Source: Candidatus Versatilivorator sp. (GTDB lineage Bacteria > Acidobacteriota > Terriglobia > Versatilivoradales > Versatilivoraceae). From it: a stretch of 64,000 nucleotides of DNA. The position numbers and the translations under genes are program-made. The notes beneath the pieces were generated by a model. The model saw only the letters and a program-made list of their open reading frames with translations. It did no database searches and was not told where the DNA came from. Below are positions 23,037-25,327 of the stretch, piece after piece. Location of the stretch: the NCBI GenBank assembly GCA_965207735.1, contig OZ242296.1, positions 384,001-448,000 on the forward strand, in the 5' to 3' direction. Every line of letters starts with the position of its first letter. Within the stretch, counting starts at the first letter, position 1.

Positions 23037-23060
23037 GCTTGCCTGAAACAACCCCGCAGT

Positions 23061-24467
23061 TCAAGCGGCTGCGATTTGTGGAACGAGGTTGAAACCAAGA
23101 GACTTAGCGGCATCTTTGAGGCCCGCGAGGCGTCGTCGCCGGAACCGGTCCTCGTAGCACGCTTCCCCGATGTCGATGTAGTCCTGGCCGTAGCGCAGCA
23201 TGCGGTAGACGAGAACGGCCAGCCGGCGAGCCATGGAGAAGACGGCGACACTCCATCCCTTGTGGCGGGCCTTGCGACGGAAGGCGGCCCCCAGAGCGGT
23301 CTTGGAGTGCTTCAGAGAGACGGCTGCCATGCGCAGGACGGCGGCGGCGCGAGTAGACCCGGTGCTGTTGGCCTTCTTGTAGTGGAGCGGCTTGCCTGCG
23401 GAGACGGCCGTTTTTGGAGCCAGGCGCAGCCAGGATACAAAGTGCTTCTCCGAGGGGAAGGCCGTCAGGTCGAGGCCGGCCTCAGTCAGCAGGGTCAGGG
23501 CCGCTTCGGTGCCGATGCCGTCGATACGCGTCAGATCGACTCCGGCAAAGCGCCACAGTTCGGTGCGCAGGTGGTGCCCACCGCGGCGGCGAATCGCCTT
23601 TTCCTTGATCGCATTGGGATGCTTCGGCACGGGCTGGTCGTGGCGCTCCACCGGTTGCAGCGCCTGGATTTCCTCCAGGATGCGGGCCTCATAGGCCGCA
23701 ATCTCGCGTTGAGTCATGTCGTAGAGCTTCAGCGCCGACTTGAGGTTGAACAGATGCTCTTCTCGCCAGTTGCCTCTGAGGTGCTCGGCAAACTCCCGGC
23801 TGGACTTCTTGCACCGTCGGTCCCGCAGACCCGCCAGACGGACCGGGTCCCGTTCGCCGTCGACAATCGCCCGCACGATCGCCATCCCCGTCTGACCGGT
23901 CAGATCGGTGACCGCACGATGGATCTGGACGTTCATCTGATCCAGCGCCTTCTGCATCCACTGCACAAAGCGGGTACTCTCGGCCCCCAGAGTGCTCAGT
24001 TGCCGGTGCAGGGTCCGAACCCGGACGATCGCCTCGTGCGGACGGAAGGATCCCCGCAGCAAGCCGCAACTGTGCAGCAACTGGATCCACTGGCAGTCCC
24101 GCATGTCGGTCTTGCGGCCCGGAACGTAGCGCAACTGCCGGGCGTTGACCAGCAAGACCTCGATGCCGCAGGACTCCAGCAGTTCGTAGAGGGGAATCCA
24201 ATACACGTTGGTGCTCTCCATCGCCACCGACTCCACCCCTTGCTCCAGCAACCAGTCGGCCAGTTGCTGCAACTGCTCCATGGTGGTGCCGAAGGTGCGC
24301 ACGTTCGGCTTCCCTGGGGTCACCTCCGGAGCGCACACCCAGTGCTCCCGACTCCCCAGGTCGATCCCTGCCACCTCGGGGTGGATCCGCGACAAGGCTG
24401 TCGAACGGCTGCGCTTCTTCTTCGGGGTCTTCTTCGCCTTCGTGTTGACTTTCCTGCTCTTTTGCAT
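23061..24467 (-). CDS. IS110-family transposase/recombinase
   Basis: RuvC-like DEDD residues (AGIDLG, AMEST, KTDMRD), IDGIG HhH-like motif, SAGK serine of the Tnp domain. Confidence 0.95.
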   Translation of the reverse strand: MQKSRKVNTKAKKTPKKKRSRSTALSRIHPEVAGIDLGSREHWVCAPEVTPGKPNVRTFGTTMEQLQQLADWLLEQGVESVAMESTNVYWIPLYELLESCGIEVLLVNARQLRYVPGRKTDMRDCQWIQLLHSCGLLRGSFRPHEAIVRVRTLHRQLSTLGAESTRFVQWMQKALDQMNVQIHRAVTDLTGQTGMAIVRAIVDGERDPVRLAGLRDRRCKKSSREFAEHLRGNWREEHLFNLKSALKLYDMTQREIAAYEARILEEIQALQPVERHDQPVPKHPNAIKEKAIRRRGGHHLRTELWRFAGVDLTRIDGIGTEAALTLLTEAGLDLTAFPSEKHFVSWLRLAPKTAVSAGKPLHYKKANSTGSTRAAAVLRMAAVSLKHSKTALGAAFRRKARHKGWSVAVFSMARRLAVLVYRMLRYGQDYIDIGEACYEDRFRRRRLAGLKDAAKSLGFNLVPQIAAA

Positions 24468-24673
24468 GAGATTGGCCTCCTCCAGGGCGAGGGCTCCGGC
24501 CCGAGTTGGCGTGGTCGTTCGGATTCTTGCCTTGAGGAGAGCTTCCCGGGAAGCCTCACTAATGAATGATGACCTGCTCGGACCCAGACTTGTCTTGGGG
24601 CACGGGGCACCAATGCTGGAACGGGGCGTAGCTGCCGGAGTCTCGCCAGGTGCTTATTCTTTCACAATGATCC
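24468..24673 (-). ncRNA. Putative IS110 bridge RNA region
   Basis: Non-coding end upstream of the recombinase; perfect palindrome GCTTCCCGGGAAGC at 24541-24554; IS110 non-coding ends are known to encode bridge RNAs, but expression and extent are not shown here. Confidence 0.55.
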
Positions 24674-24674
24674 G

Positions 24675-25327
24675 TTGTTTCACCCTCGAATGATCCGCCC
24701 GTCGTGGGGGGCGGGGGCGGGACTTGTCTGAAACAACCGAAAAACGACAAGAGACAAACGAAAAAGACTTATCCACGAAGGGGCGCGAAGAACGACGAAG
24801 GGGCACGAAGGCGCTGAGGTTAACCGCGACGGGATACAAGTTCGCGAAAGGATTGTCGATTTCTGATTGTTTCACTCTCGAATGATCCGCCCGGCAGGGC
24901 GGGGGCGGGACTTGCCTGAAACAACCGACAAAAGACAAAAGAAAAAAGAAATCCACGACGGGGCACGAAGAACGACGAAGGGCCACTAAGGCGTTGAGGT
25001 TAACCGCGACGGGGTACCAAGTTCGCGAAAGGATTGTCGATTTCTGATTGTTTCACTCTCGAATGATCCGCCCGGCACGGCGGGGGCCCGGCTTGTCTGA
25101 AACAACCGAAAAAAGACAAAAGAAAAAAACTTATCCACGAAGGGGCACGAAGAACGACGAAGGGCCACTAAGGCGCTGAGGTAAAACGCGACGGGATACC
25201 AAGTTCGCGAAAGGATTGTCGATTTCTGATTGTTTCACTCTCGAATGATCCGCACGGCAGGGCGGGGGCCCGGCTTGTCTGAAACAACCGACAAAAGACA
25301 AAGAAAAGACTTATCCACGAAGGGGCA
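24675..25327 (+). repeat. Tandem array of about 181-bp units (units 1-3 and first part of unit 4)
   Basis: TTGTTTCAC recurs at 24675, 24867, 25048, 25230 (periods 192, 181, 182) with near-identical intervening sequence. Confidence 0.95.

Follow-up and report, generated by a model that had tools for sequence, protein, structure and literature searches.

A CT-bounded IS110 element with likely gene-less derivatives in Candidatus Versatilivorator: comparative indications of self-targeted arrays and of a third guide in a predicted bridge-type RNA

The window analyzed here, 64,000 nucleotides of a Candidatus Versatilivorator sp. genome (assembly GCA_965207735.1, contig OZ242296.1, positions 384,001 to 448,000; coordinates below are those of the window unless a contig or locus is named), contains an insertion sequence (IS) of the IS110 family directly downstream of pduO and, joined to it, an array of non-coding repeat units. 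The best explanation, to which we give a probability of roughly 0.8, is that the element is bounded by CT cores, that the gene-less units are likely moved in trans, and that the arrays come from the system's targeting its own ends. Homologues for the comparisons came from 61 related genomes, GTDB contigs and metagenomes.

There are 10 full copies of the element in the genome, in three sub-lineages. All 10 start with CT after 10 differing flanks, followed by TG(C/T)CTGAAACAAC, and all 10 end with CT followed by a further copy of the TG(C/T)CTGAAACAAC word. The C/T base inside the left CT follows the IS sub-lineage in 10 of 10 copies and that past the right CT does not; the crossover is therefore within the CT, the word following it being the target's. 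Two IS-free alleles (L215 in genome G002, L228 in G013) comprise flank, CT and a right-end-like word, and lack a second hairpin arm. From these comparisons the complete element, 1685 bp including one core, almost certainly occupies 23040-24724 on the minus strand. Its right-end core, CT (AG in gene sense), is at 23038-23039, directly 3′ of the pduO stop, and its left-end core at 24723-24724, joined straight to the right-end word of the first array unit; read in gene sense, the right end measures 21 nt and the left 255 nt. A short core at both ends with no further target duplication, as in the copies and the two IS-free alleles, is an IS110 feature. A reading made from the sequence of the window alone had offered two possibilities for the real end, the loop of a host hairpin or a CT-bounded motif, and the further copies that it proposed to collect, all of which carry the end motifs, fix boundaries and core and uphold the second. 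Its CTTGCCTGAAACAACC is indeed at 23038-23053, past the recombinase stop, and opens every array unit. Its motif for the other end, TTCACAATGATCCG, is present at 24661-24674 but is a degenerate copy of the left-end motif lying farther in, and not the end of the element; the equivalent of the units' left-end motif is 24679-24697, and the element continues to the second CT. It was right too about the CT dinucleotide, but the gene-sense core is AG as in ISPpu9, and not CT as in IS621.

A 9-bp subterminal inverted repeat has its right-end arm at 23044-23052 and its left-end arm at 24674-24682, with compensated changes on both sides among the 26 lineages introduced below and 6-8 pairs from lineage to lineage. 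The arms are placed asymmetrically, 4 and 40 nt from the core. Such a repeat (7-17 bp) is characteristic of IS1111-type elements, but the long right end bearing the RNA which goes with that type is not present here, the RNA being in the left end. Of 13 congeners, 10 are free of repeats at the pduO site, two carry units there and one a different repeat, and the block 23038-27874 is accessory as a whole. Comparisons with empty sites number four, two of them too diverged for placement of the breakpoint.

The recombinase (23061-24467, minus strand, 468 aa; PF01548 and PF02371) scores 222 bits with NF033542 against a cut-off of 140, and conserved columns give it a DEDD RuvC-like domain (D36/E84/D121/D124) together with a C-terminal domain that carries a conserved serine (S356), the mapping of these residues to IS621 being by motif. 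While a single-sequence search of the PDB gave no match, a profile search matched IS621 (8wt6, E 2e-14) and ISCro4. The element belongs to the IS110 family and is bridge-recombinase-like, but two of the RNA features that define the IS621 type, considered below, are not found. Its relatives were compared in two sets. The first comprises 26 lineages of 56-100% identity forming one clade (support 100/100), and leaves out six near-duplicates and L128, which has no left end; L104 and L144, which escaped the pattern, fit when inspected by eye. The second, at 43-68% identity and independent of the formation of the ideas below, has 26 scored members from 27 parsed loci out of 63; 27 loci were lost for want of a donor-guide pair and nine for want of a hairpin by rule, and L169 has no anchor.

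A bridge-type RNA of ~150 nt with a closed terminal stem is predicted by RNAalifold from 26 sequences at 24489-24648 (minus strand). In the alignment 14 of 31 pairs have changed on both sides and 96.5% of cells are paired, a result equalled by none of 500 shuffles, and G-U alternations point to the gene-sense strand. The signal is in the alignment only: a single left end folds no better than its shuffles (z +1.58), and in an Rfam scan a group II intron, described further on, was the only match, with none for the left-end RNA. A long left end with structured RNA and a short right end are nevertheless what the IS621-type group of IS110 elements has. The two RNA domains share a plan (a short word, ATTGG, a hairpin, CCC and a guide ending in AG), which suggests an old internal duplication. 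In the first domain a predicted left-target guide, AGACAAG in gene sense (24589-24595, minus strand), is here almost the word of the element's own right end; in 120 of 130 letters (permuted, 62±5), and in 101 of 125 in the second set, this guide agrees with the 5-7 bases to the left of the core where insertion has taken place. In the second domain a predicted left-donor guide, AGGCAAG (24526-24532, minus strand), follows sub-lineage variation within the genome and matches the right end in 130 of 130 letters (permuted, 94±4.5). Both, matching DNA left of the core, conform to the left-target and left-donor scheme of the IS621-type bridge RNA (PMC11208160). The right-hand guides of that scheme, complementary to the top strand in the bases next to the core, yielded no signal among the 26 lineages, either for target (p 0.12-0.88, with power limited by one target per lineage) or for donor (p 0.19 and 0.98). 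The segment before the conserved ATTGG of the target domain was tried as a distal target guide; its five tests (p 0.02-0.85) yielded nothing convincing. Bases on the far side of the target have a flat profile from lineage to lineage and an almost flat one within the genome. There is a tendency for targets to have the inverted repeat's TTTC immediately beyond the guided word, and this TTTC may be read by the protein.

Both guides of the resident element read G(A/G)CAAG. Since its target guide is so like its donor guide, its predicted target is the element's own right end, and the 16 of 16 close copies in four congeners that sit after the right-end word agree with this. An IS dimer joined at the core in G013 (L004) gives the junction sequence. 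A natural control is provided by a sister IS of 80% identity, whose target guide is GGTCAG and whose copies follow GGT(C/T)AG in nine of nine cases. Genome G008 has 37 sister-type right ends, belonging to six IS copies and to 31 mini-elements that are sister-specific end-to-end fusions of the two ends of its own IS, and the word before these 31 is GGTCAG in 28, GATCAG in two and GGCCAG in one. None of the 31 is stacked, versus 135 of 307 left ends that run straight into a right end in the genome studied here, while a distant lineage whose two guides are alike does have IS tandems (L105, L109). The stacking would thus occur because both guides read nearly the same word, and head-to-tail growth by self-targeting is in our judgment likely. 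The sister lineage in effect represents a natural retargeting event in which an IS and its mini-elements appear to have moved together. As a comparison it is the strongest evidence both for the mini-elements as probable substrates of the recombinase, a possibility that the sequence-only reading had raised, and for stacking being guide-driven.

How extensive is this population of mini-elements? The right-end motif has 343 matches in the genome and 12 in the reversed genome, and the left-end profile 307 at E<1e-3 and none in the reversed genome. Among the 307 left ends, 273 finish in CT no more than 3 nt from the expected place (chance 35%), a figure that leans high, the profile having been trained on CT-ending copies. 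When ends are paired, 149 elements fall at 149-197 bp, 19 at no more than 90 bp, 11 at ~388 bp and nine at ~500 bp, with smaller classes besides; those below 700 bp number 206 and cover 44.8 kb. Adjacent ends are on the same strand in 368 cases and on opposite strands in seven. The units have the same two ends as the element, as suspected from the resemblance of array units to IS110 ends, and hold recombinase-free cargo between the end boxes of a cognate IS in the manner of MITEPpu9. These comparisons make it very probable that the array units are gene-less mini-elements sharing the ends of the IS and serving as substrates of its recombinase; as a phenomenon the layer of mini-elements adds a large new instance to a kind already known. 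Integron attC cassettes have RYYYAAC/GTTRRRY core boxes and a linked integrase; read by eye, the array ends are unlike such boxes, and an integrase was not searched for. An RNA from the units and a promoter at the junction are not claimed, as a 181-nt unit folds worse than its shuffles (z +2.07) and a sigma-70 scan over 24440-25340 found no promoter-like site. The 24 sequencing runs considered were all contigs, and the four that were compared offered no joint that distinguishes circle from tandem; coverage by RNA libraries does not count as evidence of expression. Three downstream repeats considered as empty host targets were discarded as such: nearly all their copies follow a left end, making them cargo with worn ends.

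In place of a right-hand donor guide beside the core there may be recognition of another sort, farther out. Every left end runs from the core through ~8 nt to a GC hairpin whose length varies, then through a word of seven letters and 5-7 nt more to the inverted repeat; here the 8-nt spacer is 24715-24722, the GC-rich DNA hairpin 24695-24714 and, abutting it, the distal word 24688-24694. In 19 of 26 lineages a spacer of 8 alone gives the longest stem, and in five more 8 is tied with another value. The candidate third guide, ATCATTC in gene sense (24564-24570, minus strand), lies in the second RNA domain and has the same sense as the distal word, which it matches in 174 of 182 letters across the first set (20 of 26 perfectly; permuted, 152.6±2.8, with none of 100,000 permutations reaching the observed value); on our own reading of the tree guide and word have undergone at least five paired changes. 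In the second set, where the hairpin was a rule of selection and the RNA match was not, a 6-mer at a fixed RNA position matches in 140 of 156 letters against 99.3±4.3, no permutation reaching this, and for the 16 distinct words the match is 87 of 96 against 59.8±3.5. In the alignment fold the third-guide word is unpaired and shares its RNA domain with the donor guide. When the junction is folded as a single strand, the inverted repeat closes it and most of the word stays open (z of -2.8 in one unit and ~0 to -1.2 in the others). Third and donor guides would face each other across one RNA loop, and a single DNA strand pairing with both would therefore turn at the base of that loop, which is where hairpin and spacer would be placed. 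From this covariation it is probable that the third guide pairs with DNA beyond the hairpin. A logic of three guides and one-sided targeting appears to be new, and it is covariation that supports it; no description of a distal same-sense guide was found in the literature, on which Fig. S12 of 10.64898/2026.10.21.760802 and Extended Data Fig. 10 of PMC11208160 may bear.

In the scheme that we favor, the recombinase and its predicted guide RNA would move gene-less units in trans. An element would depart as a circle whose ends meet at the core. The RNA's donor half would pair with one DNA strand on both sides of that core, with hairpin and 8-nt spacer forming the turn between two donor duplexes and the inverted repeat being read by the protein. 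The target half would pair with one side of the target only. Given a self-matching target guide, circles would insert at the CT of an existing element and restore a full junction, so that repeated self-insertion would grow head-to-tail arrays while loose half-site matches would seed new loci. That the clade of ~460-aa IS110 elements, and probably ISPpu9 too, has in common a three-guide one-strand RNA different from that of IS621, a folded-strand donor, a half-site target and self-seeding arrays is a broader proposition towards which we lean only slightly. The donor strand would there be folded via inverted repeat, hairpin and spacer, in a way that resembles the reading of attC by an integron, and the half-site, where it equals the element's own end, would make for a self-seeding cassette array, with about 200 passenger cassettes in this genome.

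Several points weigh against this scheme. The evidence is a sequence comparison of contigs, with no circle, transcript end or recombination among it, and related lineages not being independent, the permutation counts overstate. The empty pduO allele, to which the sequence-only reading had looked for boundaries and core, is available but has no CT at its breakpoint. Among the left ends of this genome the most frequent distal word is ATCATAC (118 of 273), which has one mismatch to the resident third guide, ATCATTC being present in 76, and within the genome type of distal word and type of target show no sorting with each other. In 73 of 142 distinct units one pair of the stem reads A-G, and the folding of unit hairpins beats that of shuffles only slightly (119 of 194). 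Mismatches of the third guide favor wobble in the first set (4 of 8) and not in the second (1 of 16), and the guide is discordant in L135 and partly so in L165. In ISPpu9 a palindrome placed likewise was mutated and circles still formed (PMC12288879). Finally, genomes G009 and G011 hold 195 and 42 right-end words without a match to the recombinase.

Some of these points speak for the most serious alternative, namely that the third RNA word does not pair with DNA, RNA word and distal word being two copies of a motif that is bound by protein or converted, with the hairpin incidental and with ends, mini-elements and self-targeting as described above. The dispensability of the ISPpu9 palindrome for circles, the lack of wobble bias in the second set and the drift of both unit hairpins and the sixth letter of the word are as it would have them, and the available text of PMC11208160 describes no bridge geometry with a same-sense distal guide. 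Nevertheless 16 different 6-letter words track at a fixed RNA position where flanking letters do not, the RNA word is unpaired and in the donor-guide domain, and the spacer is constant while the hairpin varies in length; we consider this alternative unlikely.

A different origin of the arrays, by duplication in place from one-sided left-donor reactions instead of re-insertion of circles, has a precedent in 468 tandem non-coding expansions beside IS110 elements, for which the available part of the preprint reports mostly left-donor-only matches (10.64898/2026.08.14.744561). In the genome studied here (G000), moreover, 18 of 208 outer right ends stand after a repeat of the five letters with which they begin (background, 0.2% per position), hinting at off-register events and suggesting that recombination sometimes uses a second CT inside the end. 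However, adjacent units have a mean identity of 86% versus 84% for random pairs, none reaches 98%, and the neighbor is the closest copy for only seven of 68 units. With neighbors hardly closer than random pairs, and with the twin of unit 1 being 577 kb away, the units behave as separately inserted elements. Further, arrays mix 60-, 182- and 388-bp cargos with whole IS copies, and the sister that does not target itself does not stack. Duplication in place is accordingly improbable as the source of the arrays.

Less probable again is that the units are host repeats of the type of repetitive extragenic palindromes (REP) and bacterial interspersed mosaic elements (BIME), spread by another enzyme, and that the IS targets them and acquired their ends. 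Both congener genomes with many right-end words and no recombinase match are complete, and unit cargo is made of palindromic repeats. The same plan of ends, with compensated inverted repeats, is however found in homologous IS of other phyla, and the G008 mini-elements are exact end-fusions of that genome's own IS. One of the two recombinase-less genomes, G009, retains a relic left end (L263:1500-1740) that has the full RNA, lacks a recombinase and is followed by an unrelated gene. A RAYT transposase accompanies REP/BIME repeats. REP copies in BIMEs are paired in opposite orientation (PMC12288879) and the units are not, being head to tail (the 368 same-strand against seven opposite-strand neighbors above). 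As for the IS being within the loop of a host GAAACAAC/GTTGTTTC hairpin, minimal 60-bp modules do resemble such a hairpin when empty (27679-27702), but with no second arm in the IS-free alleles, with both arms moving with the IS in 10 copies and in other phyla, and with the modules themselves CT-bounded elements, it can be dismissed with near certainty.

The array in the window opens with unit 1 (24725-24912, 188 bp), which is 99.5% identical to its copy ~577 kb away and 87-90% identical to its neighbors, followed by unit 2 (24913-25093, 181 bp), unit 3 (25094-25275, 182 bp) and unit 4 (25276-27450). The last is interrupted by a group II intron of 1995 nt (25328-27322, plus strand; RF02003, RF00029) with a reverse transcriptase/maturase (25802-27160, plus strand; PF00078 and PF08388), a passenger outside the IS system. 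Of its 15 full-length genome copies 11 follow the ATCCACGAAG motif seen in units, and mini-elements thus serve as homing sites for it. Then come a degenerate minimal element of two ends only (27451-27514) and a minimal 60-bp element (27681-27740) whose final core is CG where sister copies have CT. At lower coordinates than the IS there is a remnant with a left end only (20346-20404); past its CT the sequence is exactly the word targeted by the guide of the sister recombinase, and G008 (L060, L243) has a sister-type mini-element in the same intergenic gap. The start of homology at the CT of 27679-27680 and its stop at GGCT at 20404 had been correctly placed by the sequence-only reading. The remnant starts CT-TGTC (20344-20353), where another repeat family and the interior of a unit share eight letters, which suggests a chimera formed by microhomology or half-match. 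Elsewhere in genome G000 nine mini-elements have a nested element bearing a 395-aa open reading frame (ORF; e.g. G000:C1, 105759-107429 and 4450235-4451907), and single mini-elements have transposase-like ORFs of 573 and 464 aa.

The window also contains other repeats. A dispersed one bounded by inverted repeats (22043-22296) has no intron here, while at one position of its family elsewhere in the genome there are 28 ORF-less introns of ~869 nt. Coding repeats with a 108-nt period and several inverted copies of a GGGGACGTTGTTGAAT repeat are at 56595-58533 and 58731-61086, and coding blocks duplicated ~1430 nt apart, with 72-80% identity, at 41521-44183. Among relatives of the IS, the L146 homologue seems to be placed in the 3′ end of what we take, from its T-arm motif, to be a tRNA (a candidate only), with its left end restoring the lost bases.

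The closest precedent, as far as the available accounts go, is ISPpu9 with MITEPpu9, the ssr9 module of Pseudomonas putida KT2440 (PMC12288879, PMC8450116). The AG core is shared, and so is a gene-less module between the same end boxes that is sometimes in tandem (PMC12288879). The printed A box of ISPpu9 runs from the core through 7 nt, a 5-bp hairpin and ~13 nt to the inverted-repeat arm, and its B box from the arm through 5 nt to the core, on the same plan as the ends described above. MITEPpu9 is in eight copies as against ~200 mini-elements with several cargos here, and ISPpu9 targets REP, conserved on both sides, whereas the target here is one-sided and the element's own end. In the accessible text of the ISPpu9 accounts the palindrome is unexplained and no distal guide is named. 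With IS621 and ISCro4 (PMC11208160, PMC11208158, PMC13626964; PDB 8WT6, 9T56), again on the available descriptions, there are in common the DEDD and serine recombinase, a long left end and a two-domain RNA whose target domain precedes the donor domain and whose left guides include the core and read the bottom strand. In contrast to them top-strand right guides were not found here, a same-sense guide matches a word 20-38 nt away, the core is AG, there is an asymmetric inverted repeat of 6-9 bp, and the protein is ~140 aa longer. ISPpu10, to judge from the accessible part of the preprint, also has a GC-rich DNA stem-loop beside the core that aids recognition (bioRxiv 10.64898/2026.03.19.712850), but it is in the target, with canonical guides and a strict right guide, whereas the hairpin here is in the donor end and the candidate guide matches a word beyond it. 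That one-sided matches suffice (10.64898/2026.08.31.748434) and that IS110 loci can have tandem non-coding units (10.64898/2026.08.14.744561) is reported in preprints, which in the parts available also report single-stranded IS621 circles and treat half-matches as off-target behavior or duplication. In the present case a one-sided target seems to be what a clade uses normally, and the units seem to move singly. In the available account of another element, tandem cargo repeats are transient by-products (10.1101/2025.10.25.684509).

Bridge recombinases are under development as genome editors, and the current model of them is mainly that of IS621, with four guides adjacent to the core. If the scheme proposed is true, one-sided targeting together with a distal donor guide reading the same strand would be a second recognition logic, and it would provide a role for the palindrome that the ISPpu9 authors left open. 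Most of such a distal-guide signal could be missed by windows like the 25 nt either side of the core that a covariation survey, in its available text, describes keeping (10.64898/2026.10.21.760802). For these Acidobacteria it would mean that ~45 kb of dispersed repeats can be assigned to one enzyme.

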